The notes: generated by a model not told the origin, from the letters alone. A stretch of DNA of 64,000 nucleotides from Bacilli bacterium (GCA_017435465.1 JAFSEX010000005.1:223982-287981), one strand, 5' to 3'; shown: positions 221 to 30,413, counted from the stretch's first letter. Numbers and translations are program-made.

Positions 221-1081
221 ATGAAAGATATAAAAAGAAAAGAACATTTTGTTCCACAAGCACACTTAAAAAACTTTAGTTTTAAAAATAAAAATACCGA
301 CAAAGTTGTTGTAATAGATAAAAACAAAGATGAAACATATCCAAGTAGTATTGATGATGTAGCTTGCCAAAGAGACTTTTATGAGGTTTACGACAAAGAA
401 ACTAACTATTGGGAAAATTGGTATGCAGAAATTGATGGTAAAATAACATCTATTTATAATTCAATAATAATAAATGCAAGATATGCAAATAACAAACAAA
501 AAATTTTAAGCGATTATTTAAAACAGGAATTATCCTTAATTATAGTTTCCCAAATGTTAAGAACTAAGGTTGCAAAAAAATATTTTTTATCAATAGGTAA
601 TGATATTACTACTGAAATGATAACAAGTACCAAAAGAATTCTGAAAGATGTACTAACTAATGAACAAGTTAATTTATTAGATGAATATATGAATAAAGAG
701 GATTTTATATATTCAACAGCACTGGATTATATGAATTCTGATAAATTTATTAAAAAAGCAATTAATATATTGCAAAATAAAATATGGATTGTACATAAAA
801 ATGTAAATTATAAAAAAATTCCTTTTGTTACAAGTGATAATCCAGTAATATTATATAATCTATTTACACATAAGGTTGGATTCGGTAGTAATGGATTACT
901 TAAAGATGGGACTGTTATATACTTTCCAATTAATAAAGAACTATTAGTAGCAATATATCCAAGATATGAAAATTTAGAGAAGTATAATAATAAAATAGAT
1001 TTTCTAAATGATGATAAATTTGTAATGAGTTTTAATAAATCTAATTATATACAATGTGAAAGGCAAGTTTTTTATTCATAG
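221..1081 (+). CDS. DUF4238 family protein
   Basis: 286-aa ORF. The N-terminal HFVPQAHLKNFSF matches the H-x-x-P-Q-x-x-L-x-x-F signature that opens DUF4238 proteins as I remember it. The ATG follows a T-rich spacer. Confidence 0.5.
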   Translation: MKDIKRKEHFVPQAHLKNFSFKNKNTDKVVVIDKNKDETYPSSIDDVACQRDFYEVYDKETNYWENWYAEIDGKITSIYNSIIINARYANNKQKILSDYLKQELSLIIVSQMLRTKVAKKYFLSIGNDITTEMITSTKRILKDVLTNEQVNLLDEYMNKEDFIYSTALDYMNSDKFIKKAINILQNKIWIVHKNVNYKKIPFVTSDNPVILYNLFTHKVGFGSNGLLKDGTVIYFPINKELLVAIYPRYENLEKYNNKIDFLNDDKFVMSFNKSNYIQCERQVFYS

Positions 1082-1089
1082 ATAAATTA

Positions 1090-1143
1090 ATGACAAGATG
1101 ACAGAAGTTTGAGACACCCACACAATTATTGTCATCTTGTCAT
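1090..1143. promoter_or_regulatory. Perfect 14-bp inverted repeat ATGACAAGATGACA(N26)TGTCATCTTGTCAT between the DUF4238 gene and the next gene; candidate operator or atypical terminator
   Basis: Left arm 1090-1103 is the exact reverse complement of right arm 1130-1143. No T-run follows. An extended -10 promoter (TGTTATAAT near 1222-1230) lies downstream. Confidence 0.4.
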
Positions 1144-1246
1144 AAAAAGAATTTTAAATATAATTTTGTTTTTTTAAATTAATATTAATAATTGTAAAAA
1201 ATTAATAAAATTATGTTATAATACATAATACATTCAAAAGGAGGTT

Positions 1247-2875
1247 TTGTTAATGAATATTGGAGATTTAGTACCAAGAAAGGATTATGAATATTATATT
1301 GTTGAAAAACTTTTTGTTAACCCTAAAAAACAAGGAGATATGGATGACTTGGATGATTGGGATGACTATAGCGACTATAAAATAGGTGAAAAAATAATAG
1401 CAGAAAAAAAATATCTTACGCGAGACGTTGGTGGATATGCTGATTCATTTAAAGAATTTTTAAAAAAATATTGTAGAGTTGCAACACTAGAAGAAGAGAA
1501 TAAAATGTATGAAGAAGAGTTTTCTAATGCTCTAGTATTAGATATATATGGCGATAAGAGTTACAATGTTGGTTTTTACTATGTTCCTACGAAAGATGTA
1601 GGTCTTGATGAATATACTCATGAACAAGATTCGTGGGAGAGATGGAAAAAGAAAGAAAAAATATTCAAAAATTTAGGAATAGATTCTGCAACATTTTACG
1701 AAATAGATGATGAGGGAAAATTTATTTATGTTGAGGGACGCAAAGCTAATGATGAATTATTAAAATATTGCAGATTAGCAACGCCAGAAGAGGCAAAAAC
1801 ATTTAATGCAATTGTAGCAGAAAGAAAAAGAATACAACGCGAAAAATATTTAGCAGAAAAACAAGCAGAAGAACAAGAAAAAATAGATAGATATAACAAA
1901 AATAAGAGTGATTCTAATTATTATCCAGGTAGTTGTGGAAACTATAATCAAGTATTAGTAAATAGCGATGGTACACCAGAAAAATCAAAATTATACGATT
2001 TATATACAATAAAACAATTTTATAATGAATTGATAAAATCAGGAAAGTTTGATAAAGAAATTTTAGAAAAAATAATGCTTTATGGTGGTACAGTCCCATA
2101 TATTTTAAGTAATACACAAGAAGAAACAAGAAAATTTGGTGATATTGATATATTTATTCCAATACAAAACATGAAAGTATTTAGAAATGCATTATTGGAT
2201 AAACCATATTTTGAGATGAACTTTGATTCAATGGAATTAACAGAAAAAGCAGGACTTTTAGTTGCGGGTTCCAGATTTGAAAGACCTTGGTTTATGGGAG
2301 ACGATGATGACATAGAAGCATATCGTGAATATGAAAGAATGGTATCAAAATTACAAGATGAAGCCAGAAAAAAAATTGTTTTTCAAGATTATGGATTTAA
2401 AGGTTCTTTGTTTGGAATTAATATCTCTGTATTTCCTATATATCAATGGAACAAAGATAATAAATTAGATATATGTGCTAAAAGTTTTAGAATTGGAAAA
2501 GAAGATGGTGATAGTAAATTCCTTCTTAATACAGTAGTAACTCATAATACACCTATCACATCATTTTCTAAACTTGTTGAAATCTGTGGTGGACAAATTG
2601 GAGCTGCAAACATTGAATATACAATAGCTAGTAAGAAAAGTGCGATAAATCATGGATACATATTAAGACAAGAAAGTGATTTAGCAGATTTACAATTTAT
2701 TGAAGATCATAAATCAATATTAGGAATAAATGACGCTTTAGTAAAACATTATGAAGAAAATATACCAGATTATGGAATAGCTAAAGTATATAGAATAAAA
2801 AGAAATTATGAAGTTTGTGAATATACTCCTGAACAATATAAAAATATAGTAACAAGAAATCACAAACCTTCTTAA
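1247..2875 (+). CDS. Large hypothetical protein with an internal repeat and a possible nucleotidyltransferase-fold motif (GG..x17..GDIDIF)
   Basis: 542-aa ORF with a strong RBS (AAAGGAGG, 8 nt upstream). The motif LYGGTVPYILSNTQEETRKFGDIDIFIP resembles the G[GS]...D-x-D signature of Pol-beta-type NTases, but the spacing is long. Two repeats of YCR(V/L)AT(L/P)EE occur near the N-terminus. Confidence 0.4.
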   Translation: MLMNIGDLVPRKDYEYYIVEKLFVNPKKQGDMDDLDDWDDYSDYKIGEKIIAEKKYLTRDVGGYADSFKEFLKKYCRVATLEEENKMYEEEFSNALVLDIYGDKSYNVGFYYVPTKDVGLDEYTHEQDSWERWKKKEKIFKNLGIDSATFYEIDDEGKFIYVEGRKANDELLKYCRLATPEEAKTFNAIVAERKRIQREKYLAEKQAEEQEKIDRYNKNKSDSNYYPGSCGNYNQVLVNSDGTPEKSKLYDLYTIKQFYNELIKSGKFDKEILEKIMLYGGTVPYILSNTQEETRKFGDIDIFIPIQNMKVFRNALLDKPYFEMNFDSMELTEKAGLLVAGSRFERPWFMGDDDDIEAYREYERMVSKLQDEARKKIVFQDYGFKGSLFGINISVFPIYQWNKDNKLDICAKSFRIGKEDGDSKFLLNTVVTHNTPITSFSKLVEICGGQIGAANIEYTIASKKSAINHGYILRQESDLADLQFIEDHKSILGINDALVKHYEENIPDYGIAKVYRIKRNYEVCEYTPEQYKNIVTRNHKPS

Positions 2876-2884
2876 GAAACTTAA

Positions 2885-2920
2885 AAAAGGTAGTTGAAAA
2901 TCTTCAACTACCTTTTCAAC
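2885..2920 (+). terminator. Rho-independent terminator after the 1247-2875 gene
   Basis: AAAAGGTAGTTGAA / TTCAACTACCTTTT hairpin followed by a T-rich stretch. Confidence 0.6.
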
Positions 2921-3031
2921 TACCAATATTTTTAATTCATTCTAATTATTAAGTAAAATAAATATTTTTAAATGTAATAAAATAAAGGTAAAAGTATTTA
3001 TATAAACTTTGAAGTACGTGAATACTAACCG

Positions 3032-3176
3032 CCCCCTGAAGACTAGCCGAGAGGCTAGTCATTTTTGTTTATCCCAATAAAATCAAGGGTTTGCGAGGGC
3101 TGGGGTAGTAAAAAACACCTTTTCAGGTAACAAAAAGGTAACACTTTTTGCTACTTAAGTGTTACCTGAAAGCATA
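3032..3176 (+). repeat. Intergenic repeat copy A: unit X (CCCCCTGAAG, hairpin GACTAGCC-gaga-GGCTAGTC, ATTTTTGTTT...AAGGGTTTGCGAG) followed by unit Y (GGTAACAAAAAGGTAACAC...GTGTTACCTGAAAGCAT)
   Basis: The hairpin at 3041-3060 is followed by a T-run, so it is terminator-like. Both units recur at 4972-5172 with 70-80% identity; in copy B the hairpin stem sequence differs but base-pairing is preserved. Confidence 0.6.
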
Positions 3177-3291
3177 TTTTACAAAAAATAATCTTTGTAA
3201 ATGCTTATAAAATAAGACTTTTTGATAAAAATAAGTTAGTCCAAATGGTTTTGGTTGATTGTGTGATATAATTATAATGAGAGGTGTAATT

Positions 3292-4086
3292 ATGGCAACA
3301 AGTATTTTTGATATTGAGGTAAGATTAGACATAAATAAAGAATTTAATAAAATGGTTAAATATTTGCATCATACCAGTAATACAACATATACCAAAATAT
3401 ATGGCAGTACATTTATTGAGGCAATTAATTATTATGCGATTAAGGTTTGGCCATATAGAGGAACTGCGATAACTTGTGAAGAATATTTGGAGAATATTGG
3501 TATATCATCTTATTATTTTAAAGATGGAATGGGAATTGATAAAATTAAATTCTTATACTATTTAGAATTTATATATAATATATATAAGTTTGCTAGTTAT
3601 AGAGGATTAATTAAAATTGAAAGCGAAAGTGTAAAAGCTATAATCAAAAATCTTAATCTAATAGTAGAACAAATGAATTATGAATTTGTAAAAAAAGAAG
3701 ATAAATATTTATTAGTAAAAAGAAATGCTGATATTGATAGTATATTAACTCTAGTTGAAAAGGACATTGCAGAATTATTGTTAGAATATAATGATTTTAA
3801 AATAAAAGATAACTTGCAACGAAAAAGTGAGATACTTAAATCAATAGATAAATATATTGAAAAGAATCAGTCTGAATATTCTAAAATTGATAAAGATTCA
3901 TATAAATCATGGGGATATATAGTCAATAATTTTGGCGTGAATCATAAGACAAATGAAAAATATAAAGATGAAGACGAAAATAATTTAATAAAATGGTATG
4001 ATAAAGCTTTTATGTTAAGTATACATTTAATTAGATTAACTAAGATAAAAGAAATTAACAATGAAAGAAAAAGTTTAGAAAGTTAA
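3292..4086 (+). CDS. Hypothetical protein (first gene of the repeat-bracketed cassette)
   Basis: ORF 3259-4086. The internal ATG at 3292 (MATSIFDIEV...) has a GAGAGGTG RBS. I recognise no motifs. Confidence 0.55.
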   Translation: MATSIFDIEVRLDINKEFNKMVKYLHHTSNTTYTKIYGSTFIEAINYYAIKVWPYRGTAITCEEYLENIGISSYYFKDGMGIDKIKFLYYLEFIYNIYKFASYRGLIKIESESVKAIIKNLNLIVEQMNYEFVKKEDKYLLVKRNADIDSILTLVEKDIAELLLEYNDFKIKDNLQRKSEILKSIDKYIEKNQSEYSKIDKDSYKSWGYIVNNFGVNHKTNEKYKDEDENNLIKWYDKAFMLSIHLIRLTKIKEINNERKSLES

Positions 4087-4125
4087 ATTGTATGTTATAA
4101 TAGTTAATACCAAAGGGAGGTTTTT

Positions 4126-4950
4126 ATGACTATAGATAAGATAGATATTAACTTAACAGAAGATACATATGCTTATATATACAGAGATAGCGAAAAAGAA
4201 ATATCTGAAACATTTAAAGAAACTTTAAAGAAATATGTTGGGATAATAAATGATTTAGTAAATAAAGATTTAAAACAATTATCTGATGAAGAATTTTATA
4301 ACTTACTTTGTAATGTATATAGTATAACTTTAACTACTGGAGATTATTTAAAAATAATTTCAAAAAGAAATAATAAAAAATATAATAAATTTACTGAAAT
4401 TGATACATTTATGACTTTTGCAGATACTGCTACTGAGGGACGTGGTAAAGGTTTCAGTTGGTGGCAACAATTATATCAAGTTAGTTATATTGTTGCAGTT
4501 TCAGAAAATACAGAAATTAAGTATGGAAGTACTTTAAAAAAAGAAGATATTAAAAGAATGGTAGAAGATAAATCCATAGTTATAGTAAAATCTATAACAA
4601 AACCAATAGAACATAAATTAAATATAAATGAAGAAGTTGAAAACATACCAACAATGGAATTAAATTGTTCTCATTCTTGTGGTAATATATATGGTTCAAT
4701 ATGCAAAGATGATAATTTCCCAATTATCGTTTCAATGTTAAGAAGAAAATTTACTAAAAATAGAATACTTAAAGACATGAAAGCATATATTGAGGAATTA
4801 CAAGATGAAATGCAAATAGTATTATCACATTCACAACCAGATTATGCTTATAATGAAGTATCAAAATTATGTAATGAATGGTATGAAAATTCAGAAGAAA
4901 AAGAAACATTTAAAAGTTTGCAAAGAAAACTTAAAAGCACAGAAATTTAA
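4126..4950 (+). CDS. Hypothetical protein (second gene of the cassette)
   Basis: 274-aa ORF with RBS AAGGGAGG, starting 40 bp after the previous stop. I recognise no motifs. Confidence 0.6.
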   Translation: MTIDKIDINLTEDTYAYIYRDSEKEISETFKETLKKYVGIINDLVNKDLKQLSDEEFYNLLCNVYSITLTTGDYLKIISKRNNKKYNKFTEIDTFMTFADTATEGRGKGFSWWQQLYQVSYIVAVSENTEIKYGSTLKKEDIKRMVEDKSIVIVKSITKPIEHKLNINEEVENIPTMELNCSHSCGNIYGSICKDDNFPIIVSMLRRKFTKNRILKDMKAYIEELQDEMQIVLSHSQPDYAYNEVSKLCNEWYENSEEKETFKSLQRKLKSTEI

Positions 4951-4971
4951 TATAATTAAAAATTATTTTTG

Positions 4972-5210
4972 AGGTAACAAAAAGGTAACATTTTTTCAAA
5001 TTTAGGTGTACTGAAACAGCATGAAATTGAACTAAATTGGCCCAAAATGGACTTTTTTGAACCTGTTTGAACTATGAAAACAACGAATTTAAAATCCCCC
5101 TGAAGCTAGGTCGAGAGACCTAGCATTTTTGTTTTTCTAAGGAAAACAAAGGGTTTGCGAAGATTGAAGTAGCCCAAAGTGTATTTTTATCTACACTTTA
5201 TCTACACTTT
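4972..5210 (+). repeat. Intergenic repeat copy B: unit Y (4972-5022), then unit X with hairpin GCTAGGTC-gaga-GACCTAGC (5096-5172), then a duplicated ATCTACAC motif (5189-5207)
   Basis: Direct similarity to 3032-3176. The stem has compensatory changes on both arms. ATCTACACTTTATCTACAC recurs at 6738-6756. Confidence 0.6.
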
Positions 5211-5440
5211 TTTGACCTAAATTTTTAAGAACAAAATCTCGAAATTCCTTATAAAACCTAGAAAAGTTTAATATCGAAGTAATTAAAATTAAAAAATGAG
5301 TTTTACCAAGGTATTTAGGGGATTTTTTAAGTAATTAGAAAATTTGAGTTCCTTTATTTATCTAGGTTTAAGAATTAAAAAAATAAAATGTATGTTGCCC
5401 CTGGAAGTATCCTGAGGCAAAAAATGTGATATAATTATAT

Positions 5441-5956
5441 ATGGAAGTGATAATTATGCGATTGAGAAAACCTAAATTAGAAGATAAAGAAAAATTAAAA
5501 GATTATGTAGAAGAACATCATGTCAATGGTGAAATGAGTATTAGTGCTTCTAATGGGATGTCAACAATGAATTATGAAGAATGGCTAGAAAAACTAAAAA
5601 TAGATGAGTCTGGAGAAAATAAAGAATGGGGTATTTCAGAAACTTATATTTTAGAAGATAATGATAAAGTAATTGGAATGCTAAATATTAGATATACTTT
5701 ATCAGATGAAATGGCGGGAATTTATGGTCATATAGGTTATGGAGTAAGACCAACTGAAAGAAGAAAAGGATATGCAACTTATATGTTAAAAGAAGCGTTG
5801 ATAAAATGCAAAGAAAGGGGAATGGGTGAAGTAATATTAGGTTGTTATGAAGATAACTTTGGATCTAATAAAACAATTATAAATAACAATGGTGTTTTAT
5901 ATAAAAAATCTAAAATGAAAGATAAAGATTCTTTATATTATAAAATAAATTTGTAA
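5441..5956 (+). CDS. GNAT family N-acetyltransferase
   Basis: The stretch HIGYGVRPTERRKGYATYMLKEAL fits the acetyl-CoA binding motif A region (R/Q-x-x-G-x-G/A) of GNAT enzymes. Size is 171 aa. Confidence 0.6.
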   Translation: MEVIIMRLRKPKLEDKEKLKDYVEEHHVNGEMSISASNGMSTMNYEEWLEKLKIDESGENKEWGISETYILEDNDKVIGMLNIRYTLSDEMAGIYGHIGYGVRPTERRKGYATYMLKEALIKCKERGMGEVILGCYEDNFGSNKTIINNNGVLYKKSKMKDKDSLYYKINL

Positions 5957-5970
5957 AAGGAGTAGATAAT

Positions 5971-6726
5971 ATGAGAGTAAATTATTTTTGTAGTGGTTTT
6001 GATGTCAATAATGCTTTTTGGCCAGAGTTGGCAGAAAGGTTTAAAAATGAAATGACCGATACGAAAAGTATTGTTTATATTCCAGGTAGTCCACAAAAGA
6101 TAGAAAAAGCAAAAACAAAATATGTTCCTGCATTTACAGAGCATTTTAGAAAAGCAGGAATTCAATTTGAAAGTTCTTATTTGATTTCACCTGAAATGGA
6201 TTCTTAGGAAGCTAAAGATTTAATTAATAATGCAAGTTTTGTCATGTTAATGGGTGGGGATCCTTTTGCCCAAAAAGAAATGTGTGAAAAATTAGGAATA
6301 TTAGAAAATTTAAAAAAATATAATGGAGTAATGCTAGGATTTAGTGCAGGTGCTATGTTAATGTCTAAAAATATAATAATCACACCTTGTAGTGAAGAAT
6401 ATCCGGATTTTCATATTGAACCAGGAATGAATTTATCAGAAATATCAATTTATCCACACAATAATTTTGGTGGAAATGAATATCCTGAAAAAGTTTGCGC
6501 TGGAGATGAAACCTACGATAGAAATGATTTAATTAAAGTGGCGCAAGAATATGGTGAATTTTATTTATTACAAGATCATTTAAATGAAACTGGGTTAACA
6601 AATGTTAGCTTAATAAGAACCTGTGGTTTAGAAATTGAGTTTATCACTCAAAATGATGGCAAAATTTTTAAAGCAACAAGTAATGGTATTGAGCTACTTA
6701 CAGATAACAAAAAATATACAAGATAA
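5971..6726 (+). pseudogene. Peptidase E-like (S51 family) gene interrupted by a single in-frame amber codon (TAG 6205-6207)
   Basis: ORFs 5971-6207 and 6244-6726 are in the same frame (offset 273 = 91 codons). The joined protein carries S51-like motifs (LMGGDP, GFSAGAM). Confidence 0.5.
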
Positions 6727-6900
6727 AATAATAAATTATCTACACTTTTATCTACGAATTTTCTAAATTCTAGGGTGGTGTAGCAATTGTCTAAAATGGC
6801 AATATGCCGTATTTTAAGGGATTAAAAGGTATTGTAAGATAATCAAATTGCCCCTAAAATTTTTCCCCTTGAAGAGACCAAACAAACTAAATAATTTTCT
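6727..6900. repeat. Third locus of the intergenic repeat family (ATCTACACTTTTATCTACG; partial X-like CCCCTTGAAGAGACC)
   Basis: Shares the motif at 6738-6756 with 5189-5207 and an X-like segment near 6865-6880. Confidence 0.4.
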
Positions 6901-6955: not shown

Positions 6956-7801
6956 ATGACAGGATTAGTATTAGAAGGTGGCGCAATGCGTGGAATGTAT
7001 ACCGCAGGAGTATTAGATGTTTTATTAGAAAACAGTATTAAAATAGACGGTATAATTGGAGTTTCAGCAGGTGCATTATTTGGTGTTAATTATTTTTCAA
7101 AACAAAAAGGAAGAGTAATAAGATACAGTAAAAGATTTTGCAAAGATATACGATATATGAGTAAATTATCATTTTTATTAACAGGTAATATTGTTAACAA
7201 AAACTTTGCCTTTTATAAAGTTACCAAAAAATTAGATAAATTTGATAATGATACATTTATCAAAAATAACAAAAATTATTATGCCACTGTAACAAATGTA
7301 GAAACTGGAAATCCAGAATATATAAAAATTGATAATCCAATTAAACAACTAGAAGTTTTAAGAGCAACATCTGCTATCCCTCTTGCATCTAAAATTATAA
7401 AAATAGATGATAAAAAATATTTAGACGGTGGAATATCAGATAGTATTCCAATTCATAAATGTAAAGATTTGGGATATGAAAAAATAATTTTAATTTTAAC
7501 TCAACCACTAAATTATAGAAAAAATTCATTAGATAAAAATAAAGAAAAATTAATTGAAAAAAAATTTAAAAAATATCCTAAACTTATAAACACAATGAAA
7601 AATAGACATAATAATTATAATAGTACAATAGAAAAAATAATTGATATGGAAAATGAAAAAGAAATATTTGTAATAAGACCCTCAAAAAAAATAGATATTA
7701 ATCTTATTGAAAGAGATAGTAATAAATTACAAGAAGTATATGATTTAGGTGTTAGTGATTGTAAAAAAAATTTAAAGAAATTAAAAGAATACTTAAGATA
7801 A
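6956..7801 (+). CDS. Patatin-like phospholipase
   Basis: Gly-rich oxyanion motif GGAMRGMYTAGVLDVL, GxSxG nucleophile motif GVSAGALFG, and a DGG catalytic Asp region. Confidence 0.75.
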   Translation: MTGLVLEGGAMRGMYTAGVLDVLLENSIKIDGIIGVSAGALFGVNYFSKQKGRVIRYSKRFCKDIRYMSKLSFLLTGNIVNKNFAFYKVTKKLDKFDNDTFIKNNKNYYATVTNVETGNPEYIKIDNPIKQLEVLRATSAIPLASKIIKIDDKKYLDGGISDSIPIHKCKDLGYEKIILILTQPLNYRKNSLDKNKEKLIEKKFKKYPKLINTMKNRHNNYNSTIEKIIDMENEKEIFVIRPSKKIDINLIERDSNKLQEVYDLGVSDCKKNLKKLKEYLR

Positions 7802-11334: not shown

Positions 11335-12300
11335 ATGTTAAAAAGAATTTCTATAAGAAAAATAATTTTATCTTCTTTTACTCTATTAGTTTTATCTCTT
11401 ATATATTTACTACCAAACAATACTAAAGATTTACAAGTTGAACAAACAGAACAATATACAAATCTAAATACAGAAAATATGCATGAAATATATCTATTAG
11501 ATAGTAATAATTATATTGCAAGAACAACTGTATCATTAGTTGATAATAATAAGACAATTATAGAAAAAGCTAAAGCATTATTAGAATCAATGATAATTGG
11601 TGGAAAAAAAGAAAATTTAATCCCTAATGGATTTAAAGCTATAATACCCGTTGATACAAAAATATTAAGTGTAAAATTTGATGATGGAATTTTAAAAGTA
11701 GATTTTTCTAAAGAAATATTAGAAATAAATCAAGAATATGAAGAAAAAATGATAGAATCAATTTGTTATACATTAACTAGTATTAAAGATATAAAAGGTA
11801 TATTAATATATGTTGAAGGAAATATGTTAACAGAACTTCCTAAAAGCAAGAAGTTTTTACCTAGTATTATAGATAGAAGTTTTGGAGTTAATAAAGTATA
11901 TAATATAACAAATATAGATGATATAATACCTGTAACTGTCTATTATATAAATGAATATAATGATAATTATTATTATGTGCCTGTAACAAAATATGTTAAT
12001 AATACTAATGATAAGGTGAAAATTATTATACAAGAATTATCTAGCATGCCAACATATCAAAATAATTTAATGAGTTTTTTAAATTCAAATACAAAATTAT
12101 TAGAATATGAAATTAAGGATAAACAAATGAGATTGGAATTTAATAATTATTTAATTGATAATATAGATGAAATGAATATTTTAGAAGAAGTAAAATATAC
12201 AATTTCTTTTTCAATAATGGATAATTATGATGTAAATGAGATAATATTTAGTGTTGATAATAAAGAAATTTCAAAAACTGTATCAAAAAATCTTGAATAA
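11335..12300 (+). CDS. gerM: GerM-like sporulation/germination protein (two GerMN domains) with an N-terminal signal/anchor
   Basis: Segments IYLLDSNNYIARTTVSL...AKALLESMIIG...LSVKFDDGILKVDFSKE match the GerMN domain pattern. A second copy lies in the C-terminal half. Confidence 0.5.
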   Translation: MLKRISIRKIILSSFTLLVLSLIYLLPNNTKDLQVEQTEQYTNLNTENMHEIYLLDSNNYIARTTVSLVDNNKTIIEKAKALLESMIIGGKKENLIPNGFKAIIPVDTKILSVKFDDGILKVDFSKEILEINQEYEEKMIESICYTLTSIKDIKGILIYVEGNMLTELPKSKKFLPSIIDRSFGVNKVYNITNIDDIIPVTVYYINEYNDNYYYVPVTKYVNNTNDKVKIIIQELSSMPTYQNNLMSFLNSNTKLLEYEIKDKQMRLEFNNYLIDNIDEMNILEEVKYTISFSIMDNYDVNEIIFSVDNKEISKTVSKNLE

Positions 12301-12352
12301 TCCACAATTTTATTGTATAATCAGTGTATAAATTTTATTTGTGTGCTGATTT

Positions 12353-12429
12353 GTCCTGGTAGCTCAGCTGGATAGAGCATGCGCCTTCTAAGCGCACGGT
12401 CAGGGGTTCGAATCCCTTCCAGGACACCA
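12353..12429 (+). tRNA. tRNA-Arg (anticodon TCT)
   Basis: 77-nt cloverleaf: acceptor GTCCTGG/CCAGGAC, D-arm GCTC-AGCTGGATA-GAGC, anticodon stem TGCGC/GCGCA with loop CTTCTAA (anticodon TCT), T-arm with GGTTCGAATCC, 3' CCA encoded. Confidence 0.85.
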
Positions 12430-13959: not shown

Positions 13960-14078
13960 AATTAAAAACTAAGATTGAAAAAAATCTTAGTTTTTAATTT
14001 TTATAAGGATAGTAATAATTATTTTTTAAAATATAAATATATATTGACAATATATTAGATAAAAAGTAAAATCATAGT

Positions 14079-15431
14079 ATGGAGAATGGAAGTGGTAAAA
14101 TGGTAGATAAAATAAATAAAAGAAAAAATATGAGAAATAAAATCATTTTATCAATTCTAGCCCTATTGATAATTTTTGTAACTTTTTTAAGTATGTCATA
14201 TGCATATTTCAGTACATCTGCTATGAGTGAAGAACAAACAGTTACAACAGGAAATTTATCATTAAAATTTGATGATAATACAAGTATAATAAGAAATGAA
14301 AATATATATCCAATATCAAGAAGCCAGATATTAACAGATGCTACAAAAAAAACATTTACTATTATTAATACAAGCGATACTGATATATATACAATTTTAA
14401 TTTTAGAAGAAATGAATCTTCCAGATGAATTAAGGAATGTAGATTTTAGTTGGGCATTATATCAAAATAATGTAATGAAGACAACGGGAACATTTAATAT
14501 ATCAAAAAATTCTGACAAAGTATTTTTAACTAATTTTGAACTATTAAAAGAAGGATTATCAAAAACTTATGATTTATACATTTGGATAGAGGAAAGTGGT
14601 GTGGCTCAAGATTCAATGCAAGGAAAACTTTTTAATGCTACAATTGTTGTAAATGGCCTTGGCACTCTTGGTAAAAATACTGTAGCAACTGTAATAAAAA
14701 GTAAAAGTACTCCAAATACTACATTACCAAATTTTACAACCCCATCAGTTAATAATGGATTATTCCAAACAAATACAAATACTTTAAACAATCAACCAAC
14801 ATATTATTATAGAGGTAATGTTACAAATAATTATTTATCTTTTGCTGGACAATTATGGAGAATAGTTAGAATTAATGAAGACGGTTCAATTAGATTAATT
14901 TTAGAAACAAATATAGGAAGCAAAAAATATAGTAGTAATACAACATGTAATTTAAGTAATCAAACAAATTGTACAACTAACTATCAAATTAGTAATATTA
15001 AAACAATATTAGATAAATGGTACTCTACTACAATTAAAGCTAATTCTAATCTAGATAGCAAAGTTGTAACCGGGAAATTTTGTAATGATACATCAAATAC
15101 TTTTGTTGATAGAAGTGCTAGTCCAACGTTTGATTGTACTAATGTAATAGAGTCAAAAGTTGGAACAATTAGTGCTGATGAAGTTATTTATTCTGGGGCA
15201 CTATATAACTCAGCAAGTAATACAACATATTTAAATAACAATGCATCATTTTATACAATGACATCTAGTTCAAATTCACAAGTCTATATATGGAATAATA
15301 GTAATACATCACTTACAAATGATGCAAATATATTTGATTATTATGATGTTCGACCAGTAATAAATTTAGATTCTACTACAATAATAACTAGTGGAGAAGG
15401 AATAATTAATGATCCTTATATAGTAAATTAA
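14079..15431 (+). CDS. Secreted protein with a TasA/camelysin-like N-terminus (SipW-type signal)
   Basis: Signal/anchor followed by SYAYFSTS...TTGNLSLKFDD resembles the AxFSD...ASGTLDL start of the TasA/CalY family. The long C-terminus is N/T/S-rich. Alternative starts at 14100 or 14130. Confidence 0.4.
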   Translation: MENGSGKMVDKINKRKNMRNKIILSILALLIIFVTFLSMSYAYFSTSAMSEEQTVTTGNLSLKFDDNTSIIRNENIYPISRSQILTDATKKTFTIINTSDTDIYTILILEEMNLPDELRNVDFSWALYQNNVMKTTGTFNISKNSDKVFLTNFELLKEGLSKTYDLYIWIEESGVAQDSMQGKLFNATIVVNGLGTLGKNTVATVIKSKSTPNTTLPNFTTPSVNNGLFQTNTNTLNNQPTYYYRGNVTNNYLSFAGQLWRIVRINEDGSIRLILETNIGSKKYSSNTTCNLSNQTNCTTNYQISNIKTILDKWYSTTIKANSNLDSKVVTGKFCNDTSNTFVDRSASPTFDCTNVIESKVGTISADEVIYSGALYNSASNTTYLNNNASFYTMTSSSNSQVYIWNNSNTSLTNDANIFDYYDVRPVINLDSTTIITSGEGIINDPYIVN

Positions 15432-15458
15432 AAGACAATCGTTTGATTGTCTTTTAAT
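15432..15458. terminator. Bidirectional terminator between convergent genes
   Basis: AAGACAATC-gttt-GATTGTCTT hairpin with T-runs on both sides. Confidence 0.6.
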
Positions 15459-16533
15459 TTAATTCTTTTATCTTTTCAACATTTTTAAAATTCAATTTAG
15501 CAACTTTATTAAGTTCATCAAATCCAAATTTTTTAACAAACTTAACACCAAATTCATCAACTAAATTAGATGCACCCTTAGGTAAAAACATATCATATTT
15601 TGCTCCTAATTTTTCTAATTCAATTAAGAATGTATATCTACTAATTAATGAACCACATGCAACTGCAAGATTTTTATCTTCAGCTTTAGTCATAAATTCA
15701 ATATCTCGAACAACATTTTCTTCATTTTTTAAATATTCATAGTATTTTCTTGGATTTACAAATTGATCCAAAATAATATAATCATATTCTAAAACATTGT
15801 TTTTAAGTTTATATAAAACCTCATTATGTAATAAAGCTTTAAAAGTATTCATATTAATTTCACTAGAATACATTGTATTGTATTCTTCATTAGTTAGAAT
15901 AGCACTTTCATATTTAATCTTTTTCATGATTTCAGGCACAATTTTTAAAATAGTTTCATCACTCATTTTTTTAGAATCTTTAACTCCTAAACTTTCTAGA
16001 AATGGAATATCTTCTTTAGTAACATAAGAAGCTGTTACAACAATAGGGCCAAAGAAATCTCCAGTACCAACTTCATCAGATCCTATTGAAGTAATATTAT
16101 AATAATCTTTTACAGTTTTTTTAGTATCAGTAATTTTCTTTTCTTTTCTACCCTTAATATATGTACATCTTGGATAATTACTGCAAGCGGTAAATTCTCC
16201 ATATTTTCCATTTCTAATAACTAAATTATGACCACATTCAGGACATATTTCACCAGTTTCAGTTGGTGGAACTTTTTTTTGTTCTTCAGTATTTTCAATA
16301 GGGTTTAAATGAGCTTCTCTTTGTTTCCAAAGCGATGCATCAATATCTGCACTTATACCTTGAAACATAGCTTTACCTGATTCATATAAAGTAATTACAG
16401 TATCAGCATCATCTGCTTGAAATATCGCATAAGGGGGAGTTTTTTCTCTTCTTTTAAATGCATATTCTCTTATCATCTCTTCTTTTATTTGATCACTAAC
16501 TTTTATTACAATTGTTTTTTGTTTTGATTTCAT
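15454..16533 (-). CDS. rnhC: Ribonuclease HIII with an inserted topoisomerase-type C4 zinc ribbon
   Basis: Catalytic motif IGSDEVGTGDFFGP (DESGKGDxxGP in RNase HIII) and an N-terminal TBP-like domain. Between them, CPECGHNLVIRNGKYGEFTACSNYPRCTY matches the zf-C4 topoisomerase ribbon pattern. Confidence 0.65.
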   Translation of the reverse strand: MKSKQKTIVIKVSDQIKEEMIREYAFKRREKTPPYAIFQADDADTVITLYESGKAMFQGISADIDASLWKQREAHLNPIENTEEQKKVPPTETGEICPECGHNLVIRNGKYGEFTACSNYPRCTYIKGRKEKKITDTKKTVKDYYNITSIGSDEVGTGDFFGPIVVTASYVTKEDIPFLESLGVKDSKKMSDETILKIVPEIMKKIKYESAILTNEEYNTMYSSEINMNTFKALLHNEVLYKLKNNVLEYDYIILDQFVNPRKYYEYLKNEENVVRDIEFMTKAEDKNLAVACGSLISRYTFLIELEKLGAKYDMFLPKGASNLVDEFGVKFVKKFGFDELNKVAKLNFKNVEKIKELN

Positions 16534-29763: not shown

Positions 29764-30192
29764 ATGAAAAAGTTTAAACGTTCCCTTCGTGGCTATAATA
29801 CAAAAGAAGTTAATGCTTTTGTAAATGAAGTTGTAAGCCAAGTTGAAATTATGGTTAATCAAATAAAAGAAAAAGATTTAAAAATACAAGCATTAAATGC
29901 AAATCTTTTAAAATATAAAAATATGGAAGAAACTCTAAATAAATCTATAGTTATGGCTCAAGAAACTTCAGAACAAATGAGAAGAATGGCGCGCATTGAA
30001 AGTGAAAATATTATTAGTGATGCAAAGAAAAACGCTAATAAGATTGTAAATGATGCATTAACTAGAGCTTCAAAAGTTGAAGCAGAAACTGCTGTTCTTA
30101 AGAAAAATATAAATATATTTAAAACAAGATTAAAAAATATTATTGAACAACAATTACAAATGGTTGATGATATGGATAATATAGATATTTAA
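29764..30192 (+). CDS. divIVA: DivIVA-domain protein
   Basis: N-terminal FKRSLRGYNTKEVNAFVNEV is the DivIVA motif, followed by a coiled coil. Same order (sepF...divIVA-ileS) as the B. subtilis ylm/divIVA region. Confidence 0.65.
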   Translation: MKKFKRSLRGYNTKEVNAFVNEVVSQVEIMVNQIKEKDLKIQALNANLLKYKNMEETLNKSIVMAQETSEQMRRMARIESENIISDAKKNANKIVNDALTRASKVEAETAVLKKNINIFKTRLKNIIEQQLQMVDDMDNIDI

Positions 30193-30199
30193 AACAAAT

Positions 30200-30413
30200 G
30201 ATAGAGACGGTATTTTAATTTAATTTAAGCGAGTAGGGATTTTGGTGTAAGCCTATAATATAAATTAAAATATAGATCACTCTTGATGTGTCTTTCTGAT
30301 ATTAGGAAAGAACCTTATACTAGGTTACAAGTATCTAAGTGTATGATAATAATCATAAACTAAGGTGGTACCGCGGGAAAATCTCGTCCTTAAATTTTTA
30401 AGGACGTTTTTTT
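30200..30413 (+). ncRNA. T-box riboswitch leader (probably Ile-specific), ending in an intrinsic terminator
   Basis: Conserved T-box sequence AAGGTGGTACCGCGGG at 30362-30377. Terminator CGTCCTTAA/TTAAGGACG plus T7 at 30385-30413. Upstream AGAGA and AGTAGGGA (AG-box) elements. A candidate specifier ATC followed by A is at 30286-30289. Confidence 0.7.

Follow-up and report, generated by a model that had tools for sequence, protein, structure and literature searches.

The question raised by this locus is whether four neighbouring genes make up one defence system or came together as unrelated cargo. The genes, called g1 to g4 here, follow one another on the + strand between positions 221 and 4950 of a 64,000-nucleotide (nt) stretch of DNA (the window; GCA_017435465.1 JAFSEX010000005.1:223982-287981) from an uncultured member of the Bacilli whose genome was assembled from metagenomes. 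The window is part of a 150-kb metagenome scaffold, and positions beyond its left end are given for L015 (window position plus 9780; 1 mismatch in 11 kb). A sequence-only reading had taken the region for an accessory island of phage-defence or toxin type with an unfamiliar combination of genes. All four open reading frames (ORFs) are present in an ORF listing, and the accessory, mobile nature of the region was borne out, in that it consists of elements bounded by attachment (att) sites at a hot spot that holds defence genes in relatives; that it is an accessory island is thus supported. What did not stand was the idea of a single gene combination, because the homologues of g2, g3 and g4 occur apart and the four genes are split over two att-bounded elements. 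We consider it likely, with a probability of roughly 80%, that g1 to g4 are independent cargo of two mobile elements, element A and cassette B, which are stacked at one attachment site, the 3′ end of a small RNA (sRNA) gene.

A small RNA gene as attachment site

The sRNA gene is about 100 nt long (L015 2200-2320) and lies downstream of recG, some 7.5 kb upstream of window position 1. It comprises a sigma-70 promoter of the form TTGACA-17-TATCAT, two hairpins, the unpaired tail CAACCAAAACCCCCUGAAG and a terminator. An Rfam scan of L015 and 14 further loci returned no family for it. The gene is found downstream of recG in 11 genome loci (L015, L017-L019 and L022-L028), and also in L038, which came from the look-up of g4; RecG of the related genomes is 51-64% identical. 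At least 111 true copies were recovered among at least 120 stretches listed from gut and rumen metagenomes (L044-L162), and recG was near the sRNA copy in 74 of 111 among the matches listed. The variants were folded one by one, since an alignment of eight sequences with MAFFT and RNAalifold had misaligned the variable hairpins. Two hairpins followed by an unpaired tail were obtained for 68 of the 79 distinct variants among the matches listed (mean z -4.35). Because the stems take 43-49 different sequences among these 79 variants while the fold is kept, they co-vary, and the C-rich, unpaired tail is strictly conserved. Such a tail might base-pair with ribosome-binding sites rich in G. The analysis thereby reveals a widespread sRNA outside Rfam.

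The terminator of this gene, located in the spacer between recG and an integrase gene, is the first of three copies of a repeat (L015 2273, window 3032 and window 5096) whose flanks are conserved. Each copy consists of the core CCCCCTGAAG, a 7-8-bp stem with a GARA loop, CATTTTTGTTT and AAGGG.TTG. The stems differ among the three copies yet stay complementary, i.e., they co-vary, and all three hairpins score as intrinsic terminators. In the window, copy b occupies 3032-3108 on the + strand (core 3032-3041, terminator hairpin 3041-3060, AGGGTTTGCGA at 3086-3096), and copy c occupies 5096-5172 on the same strand (core 5096-5105, terminator hairpin 5105-5124); a hairpin identical to that of copy c is found in L019. 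These two copies bracket g3 and g4, as does a second pair of direct repeats (3106-3162 with 4953-5009), so that the repeat-bracketed cassette proposed earlier around these two genes is confirmed. The motifs of the bracketing repeats are far commoner than in shuffled sequence, and in the window they occur only at these junctions. We conclude that the bracketing repeats are att sites and that their core is the 3′ end of the sRNA gene. Copy b serves as attR of element A and attL of cassette B, and copy c as attR of cassette B and left end of a third unit, C.

The core is identified as a recombination site because of four lines of evidence. Identical sRNA bodies continue into 2-7 different downstream sequences, which diverge right after CCCCCTGAA(G). 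A 1.46-kb insert in L023, as compared to L022 and L025, has shifted the native terminator further downstream. In at least 20 loci, homologues of the integrase (39-56% identity) are encoded antisense right after the core, with the end of the integrase gene 110-170 nt from the core in 13 of 20 among the matches listed, and Mob_Pre homologues are present in at least five. Furthermore, a prophage has integrated at the same sRNA 3′ end in L200 (IMG/VR UViG_3300031555_005889); it encodes an integrase with an Arm-DNA-binding domain, an S24 repressor, SSB, NinB and a PD-(D/E)XK nuclease, and it carries three TTAGATACT repeats with 11-nt spacing after the core.

Each unit of the stack also has its own 8-mer, repeated at both ends at a spacing of 11-12 nt (CAACTACC in element A, AGGTAACA in cassette B and ATCTACAC in unit C). 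Elements with tyrosine integrases recombine within CCCCCTGAAG at the sRNA 3′ end, and each newcomer supplies its own terminator hairpin, such that the sRNA gene is kept intact; earlier arrivals are shifted downstream, and a stack builds. Element A is probably the latest arrival, because it adjoins the sRNA gene and is complete. Units B and C would need other integrases in trans, because their 8-mers differ from those of element A.

Stacked elements and their cargo

Element A extends over 10,539 bp from L015 2273 to window 3041, with g1 and g2 at its right end. Upstream of the window, recG is followed by a 230-nt spacer, by antisense genes for a tyrosine integrase, a Mob_Pre relaxase, an AAA_25 protein and a 78-amino-acid (aa) protein, and by a cargo operon in the sense direction; a helix-turn-helix (HTH) regulator is also encoded. 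The integrase, a phage-type enzyme (Phage_integrase, E 9e-27), contains a SAM_3 domain, the relaxase matches Mob_Pre with E 5e-11, and no type IV secretion genes are present in the 10.5 kb of the element. The cargo operon consists of seven tightly packed genes, for HTH, GNAT, cupin, alpha/beta hydrolase, DUF5680, Ser_hydrolase and g1. The sixth of these, according to gene calls and Pfam on L015, reaches into the window with its 3′ end (Ser_hydrolase, 1-199, + strand). Direct att repeats (cores at L015 2273 and window 3032) bound the element, and CAACTACC is present at both ends: by the integrase gene at the left (L015 2366-2385), and at 2905 (+), 2917 (+) and 2896-2889 (-) at the right (2889-2924; 12 nt apart). 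Related elements use the same target. With its own integrase and relaxase but no conjugation apparatus, element A classes by sequence as an integrative mobilizable element (IME), and its excision and mobilization are predicted.

Between g1 and g2 lies the perfect 14-bp inverted repeat that had been noted before (1090-1143; ATGACAAGATGACA at 1090-1103 and TGTCATCTTGTCAT at 1130-1143). Its presence is confirmed; each arm reads ATGACA-AG-ATGACA, and the RNA folds with -21.4 kcal/mol (z -5.7). A homologue, 83% identical, is found in an element in L063 whose integrase is 50% identical to that of element A, and there it abuts the CAACTACC arm sites at the right end and attR. The L063 element is contiguous where the window has g2, since its positions 12093-12166 correspond to window 1075-1148 and its positions 12161-12323 to window 2882-3042. 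Because the flanking segments are contiguous there, the stretch of 1.73 kb that holds g2 with its promoters (1149-2882, + strand; A-runs at 1144-1148 and 2883-2888) is a separately acquired one-gene insertion in the backbone of element A. Because the inverted repeat is kept in L063 without g2, it belongs to the element rather than to a g1-g2 unit, and it does not serve to regulate this gene pair. It is also not conserved upstream of other g2 homologues, and we therefore rejected it as a regulator of g2. The inverted repeat is part of the conserved backbone of a family of mobile elements, where it may serve as terminator of the cargo operon or as a protein-binding site. Promoter-like sites for g2 (1137-1222, + strand) are consensus matches only; they comprise TTGTCA-16-TATAAT (1137-1164), part of which lies within the right arm of the repeat, and the extended -10 TGTTATAAT (1214-1222), which is the one predicted earlier downstream of the repeat.

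Cassette B (3032-5105; 2,064 bp counted from 3032 to 5096) holds only g3 and g4 and no integrase. Its AGGTAACA arm repeats lie at 3125 (+), 3136 (+) and 3167-3160 (-) on the left (3125-3167; conserved in L066), and at 4972 and 4983, 11 nt apart, on the right (4972-4990, + strand). A promoter and a ribosome-binding site (RBS) follow the left arm (3264-3286, + strand; extended -10 TGATATAAT at 3264-3272, RBS GAGAGGTG at 3279-3286). Having attL and attR but no recombinase or transfer genes, it has the make-up of a cis-mobilizable element (CIME). The left end would give the sRNA its terminator and provide the promoter and RBS that drive g3 and g4, while moving the cassette would need a matching integrase in trans. 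In L066 (oriented), positions 4094-5331 are about 84% identical to cassette B at both ends. The match on the left covers the core, hairpin, arm repeats, extended -10 and RBS right up to the ATG, and that on the right comprises the arm repeats plus the stretch preceding the core. The cargo in between is an intact Peptidase_S51 gene in place of g3 and g4. This comparison points to an exchange of cargo within a conserved expression cassette, the ends of which are a reusable chassis.

The third unit runs from 5096 to about 6874, with ATCTACAC at 5189, 5200, 6738 and 6750. Within it lie a gene for GNAT (5456-5956) and one of the Peptidase_S51-like kind (5971-6726), and an integrase is lacking. The latter gene is broken by one in-frame TAG (6205-6207), and the same stop is present in the conspecific contigs L015 and L035-L037.

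The distribution of homologues bears directly on whether g1 to g4 belong together. Homologues of g2 stand alone in L002, next to a ribosomal-protein operon, in L003, between unrelated divergent genes, and in L011-L014, by HTH and DUF6076 genes of a clostridial genome. Those of g3 are found in L008 and L041 (8001-8795), directly downstream of a large serine recombinase and before Fic or MazEF genes, and a further one, 30% identical, in the Solobacterium phage SMO_1P (L164 3599-4495), in all cases without g4. In the phage, the gene sits in the lysogeny module between a repressor-like HTH gene and a tyrosine integrase. Conversely, g4 homologues occur without g3 in L038 and L040, and a different cassette at this recG-sRNA hot spot has a g4 homologue as its first gene. 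Hence, not even g3 and g4 co-occur as a pair across genomes.

That the four genes nevertheless form one co-functional defence or toxin system would explain why they are adjacent on the same strand and why the order g1-g2-g3-g4 recurs in contigs from four samples of the species. However, the order is repeated in contigs of this species only, and the genes are never met together outside it, where g2, g3 and g4 were each found on their own; g2 is cut off from g3 by an att site that includes a terminator, and g2 is inserted relative to the related element. We therefore regard a single system as very improbable. Adjacency within an island is not evidence of a system, and here it would have misled. 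An equally slim chance is given to the view that the repeats are ordinary terminators or dispersed intergenic repeats, and the genes a stable part of the chromosome. This would fit the terminator scores of the hairpins, the uniform GC content and the fact that no empty site was found in this species. It would not account for the divergence that begins exactly at the core in many genomes with an identical sRNA body, for the adjoining integrases and the prophage integrated at the site, for the unit-specific arm repeats at both ends, or for the confinement of the motif to the junctions.

Several observations count against independent cargo on mobile elements, or against a role of that cargo in defence. 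Exact-protein look-ups of g1, g3 and the GNAT protein yielded neither an empty site nor an excised circle in this species, all conspecific contigs having the same arrangement. The GC content is uniform at about 0.25 across the window, such that the compositional deviation that had been suggested as a check gives no foreign signal. The right core of the third unit is degenerate (CCCCTTGAAG at 6865) and without a hairpin. The 8-mers, which lie one helical turn apart, are putative arm-type binding sites by analogy only. The remaining cargo genes of element A (GNAT, cupin, hydrolases) resemble genes for small-molecule chemistry and not defence genes, and apart from g1, element A and cassette B have no PADLOC match except an HTH regulator. 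Finally, for g2, g3 and g4 there is no functional evidence, and their link to defence is one of genomic context only.

A separate search concerned the distribution of the cassette B arm sites. When IMG/VR was scanned for the AGGTAACA arm pair, 35 matches were obtained, 0 of them near an att core, and we judged them to be chance matches.

The proteins encoded by g1 to g4

The identification of g1 (221-1081, + strand; 286 aa; last gene of the cargo operon) as a DUF4238 protein holds end to end. It matches Pfam PF14022 with E 6e-33 and 114.9 bits (gathering cut-off 27), residues 7-286 aligning to profile positions 1-278 of 281, and the signature HFVPQAHLKNF corresponds to residues 9-19. Its match to the PADLOC model DUF4238-Pers has E 6.3e-12 and aligns residues 4-244 with positions 3-254 of the 309 in the profile, and in PHROGs it matches phrog_29785 (E 1.5e-10). 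A PDB sequence search with g1 gave no match. A DUF4238 single-gene system from the P2-prophage hot spot of E. coli blocks T7 (Rousset et al. 2022, PMC9122126); this is the one validated anti-phage member of the family, and its mechanism is unknown (PMC9122126). Like that system, g1 is a single protein with full-length PF14022 above the gathering score, matches the PADLOC model built on the system, and belongs to the cargo of a mobile element. The two are distantly similar (PADLOC E 6e-12), and g1 differs in its host, an uncultured low-GC member of the Bacilli, and in being the last of a seven-gene operon rather than an isolated gene. By its sequence, g1 is thus a credible homologue of a single-gene anti-phage system and a new member of a known family, and by analogy with the E. 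coli protein it may protect the host or the element from phage. A defence role by homology can be proposed for g1 only. The phage-defence interpretation of the island accordingly stands for g1, through this homology, and for the hot spot in relatives; for g2, g3 and g4 it comes down to context. The same split was seen in the PADLOC check, where g1 gave a match and the remainder of element A and cassette B only the HTH regulator.

The gene g2 (1253-2875, + strand) most likely starts at ATG 1253, which lies 8 nt after GGAGG and agrees with public gene calls; the start listed for the ORF was TTG 1247. Of the 542-aa protein with an internal repeat and a nucleotidyltransferase motif described before, the ORF, the motif and the repeat are real, while the length is likely 540 aa and the repeat is short: LKKYCRVATLEE (about residues 71-82) returns as LKYCRLATPEE (about residues 172-182). 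Both copies are conserved family-wide, and BLASTP of the two halves of g2 against each other did not detect the repeat. The motif YGGTVPY..x..RKFGDIDIF is invariant across 29 homologues; in their alignment, YGGT.PY...R.FGD.DIF.P and QD.GFK are invariant, as are the residues G280, G281, D299 and D301, with D327 near-invariant. A C-terminal E-Y-T-.-A-S-K..A...R..D..D is conserved in the same 29 sequences, most positions nearly invariantly. The protein thus has an N-terminal part of about 220 aa (duplicated LKxYCRxATxEE and a long helix), followed by a C-terminal nucleotidyltransferase (NTase) domain of the Pol-beta fold.

The AF2 model of g2 is a confident one (pLDDT 89.7). The best Foldseek matches in the PDB are all NTases (TM1012 with probability 1.0, a fungal NTase-like protein, ANT(2'')-Ia with 0.99 and MenT1 with 0.72), with E-values that are weak (4e-3 or higher) for this multi-domain query; among viral structures only weak LicD-like NTase matches were obtained. 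Scans of Pfam, NCBIfam, PHROGs and PADLOC gave nothing significant, and no match of any kind at E<=1 in PADLOC, which places g2 outside the CBASS CD-NTase and the other PADLOC NTase models. Nor did the family profile match any PDB sequence. The family is rare, with 51 clusters among 5.8 billion sequences and 80 matches among 1.84 billion representatives in a profile search, and its homologues all come from gut metagenomes or metagenome-assembled genomes of uncultured Bacilli and Clostridia; it is absent from a phage collection and from 72,556 plasmid records. When ten distant matches were scanned with Pfam, one carried an NTase domain, DUF2204.

Having the hG[GS]...[DE]h[DE]h motif with a third carboxylate and, in the model, the NTase fold, g2 qualifies as an orphan Pol-beta-fold NTase with an intact active-site motif and an extra conserved N-terminal module, and activity is predicted. 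It shares G-G...D-x-D, the third acidic residue and a helical C-terminal subdomain with minimal Pol-beta NTases (TM1012/DUF2204, ANT(2'')-Ia, MenT/AbiEii), whose fold it matches and to one of which, DUF2204, a distant relative is linked by Pfam. It differs from them by a beta-rich insert and the conserved 220-aa N-terminal duplicated module, and it lacks sequence-level membership in any of these families. We infer that g2 may be a conflict-type nucleotidyltransferase that would move a nucleotide onto some target, with the duplicated module controlling or targeting the catalytic domain.

Two more specific functions were considered for g2. One is that of a tRNA nucleotidyltransferase that acts as an AbiEii/MenT-type toxin, with its own antitoxin or sensor as a fused part. 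Besides the Foldseek match to MenT1, this is suggested by true AbiE pairs that fill cassettes at the same hot spot in relatives, and the C-terminal ASK..A...R and D..D resemble by eye what we take to be AbiEii motifs III and IV. However, PF08843 (AbiEii/DUF1814) gave no match at E<=5 in any of the 29 family members, comparison of the family profile with the true AbiEii of L093 by hhalign gave a probability of 0.1, and no AbiEi or MenA antitoxin gene, nor any other conserved neighbour, lies beside g2 homologues in four independent contexts, so that g2, unlike MenT/AbiEii, stands alone. Identity with AbiEii itself, suspected from these motifs, was ruled out by the Pfam scan and hhalign, and we hold the broader fusion idea to be unlikely. 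Somewhat less probable still is a small-molecule-modifying NTase of the ANT/Lnu type, with the element being a resistance or detoxification island rather than a defence one. Resistance genes are frequent cargo of IMEs in Firmicutes, element A also carries genes for GNAT acetyltransferases, a cupin and alpha/beta hydrolases, and ANT(2'')-Ia (4wqk) is among the best structural matches, though with fold-level likeness only (TM 0.62 on target). Against this, the curated aminoglycoside and lincosamide nucleotidyltransferase families are matched neither by the 29 members in Pfam nor by the window g2, the only member scanned there, in NCBIfam; g2, which has the conserved N-terminal module, is three times as large as ANT(2'') or Lnu(A), and both its rarity and its absence from plasmid records speak against a resistance gene. 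As it stands, g2 is not demonstrably an AbiEii, an ANT or a CD-NTase.

The two genes of cassette B encode orphan proteins of 264 aa (g3, 3292-4086, + strand; ORF from 3259, likely start ATG 3292) and 274 aa (g4, 4126-4950, + strand), which were presumably acquired as accessory genes and may be expressed from the cassette promoter. Scans of Pfam, NCBIfam, PHROGs and PADLOC gave nothing significant for either, and PDB sequence searches with the g3 profile and the g4 sequence gave no match. The AF2 model of g3 is confident (pLDDT 91.9) and fits no solved fold, the best Foldseek hit in the PDB being the ScpB winged helix with a probability of only 0.30. The family of g4 is small, with 26 clusters. 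In the two genomes and the temperate phage that carry g3 homologues, a recombinase gene is always beside them. Together with g2, these are three orphan families that, being located on mobile elements, can reasonably be proposed for cloning.

The hot spot in relatives and comparison with known architectures

Cassettes at the same hot spot in relatives (L093 272-2150, L071 2147-7150, L038 3778-10653) hold varied cargo. Among it are AbiEii with AbiEi, in two independent cases, a 446-aa Apea-type HEPN protein, and a type II DNA methyltransferase with a 374-aa partner of unknown kind and an ASCH protein. Because relatives carry AbiE, HEPN and methyltransferase genes there, the hot spot behaves like a defence island, though it also takes up plain enzymes (Peptidase_S51, GNAT). 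The succession of recG, sRNA gene and cassette stack makes it easy to find in a large group of uncultured low-GC gut Bacilli, such that it can be mined for defence and conflict genes in the same way as the P2 and P4 hot spots of E. coli.

That a mobilizable element and integrase-less, att-bounded elements accrete in tandem is well documented, and in ICESt1/CIME of Streptococcus thermophilus, CIMEs stand in tandem at one att site (PMC5704250). The present locus is alike in that an element with integrase and relaxase is in tandem with integrase-less attL/attR units, with one core common to all, where the target gene ends. It differs in that the target is an unannotated sRNA gene instead of a tRNA or protein-coding gene, in that the integrase-less units are very small (1.2-2.1 kb), and in that they have a conserved promoter and RBS, with at least one chassis recurring with other cargo. 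Because of the promoter and RBS and the recurring chassis, the small units look like expression cassettes rather than products of decay.

The sRNA genes ryeB and ryeE are phage attachment sites in enterobacteria, and there, too, integration takes place at the sRNA 3′ hairpin and the newcomer supplies a replacement terminator (PMC3603311). Here, the phylum is a different one and the sRNA unrelated, and the site is common to phages, mobilizable elements and mini-cassettes. With integron cassettes the units share their size of one or two genes, their bounding recombination sites, their stacking and their swappable cargo. In contrast to integrons, there is no IntI-type integrase, attC or single common promoter, and every unit comes with a promoter of its own, with arm-type repeats and with a lambda-like att core. 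An integron cassette array was ruled out because of the phage-type SAM_3 integrase, the promoter and RBS of each unit and the lack of attC-like sites. New in this locus are hence the target sRNA, the very small promoter-bearing cassettes with exchangeable cargo, and the three orphan protein families.

A bolder extension, which we offer tentatively and think unlikely to hold in full, is that the small att-bounded units are a working platform for gene capture and expression rather than decayed elements, and that g2, g3 and g4 are each new single-gene proteins for anti-phage or inter-element conflict in uncultured gut Bacilli. The chassis of each unit, made up of sRNA terminator, arm sites, promoter and RBS, would receive various single genes. 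Shuffling of the units would be done in trans by integrases from those phages and mobilizable elements whose target is this sRNA, and the N-terminal duplication of g2 would act as a sensor.

Directly after the stack lies a stand-alone gene for a patatin-like phospholipase (6956-7801), which weakly resembles the lipase effector of CBASS (NCBIfam E 1.5e-7; PADLOC Effector E 1.3e-6); no cyclase gene is near it. Further along the window, and unconnected with the island, are a tRNA-Arg(TCT) gene (12353-12429) and a T-box leader (30189-30394; 107 bits). Of the 32 bins of 2 kb that make up the window (1-64000), 31 have a positive GC skew and one, at 14001-16000, a slightly negative one, and the cumulative skew climbs almost steadily. 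The whole window thus appears to lie on one replichore, with most of its genes on the leading strand.

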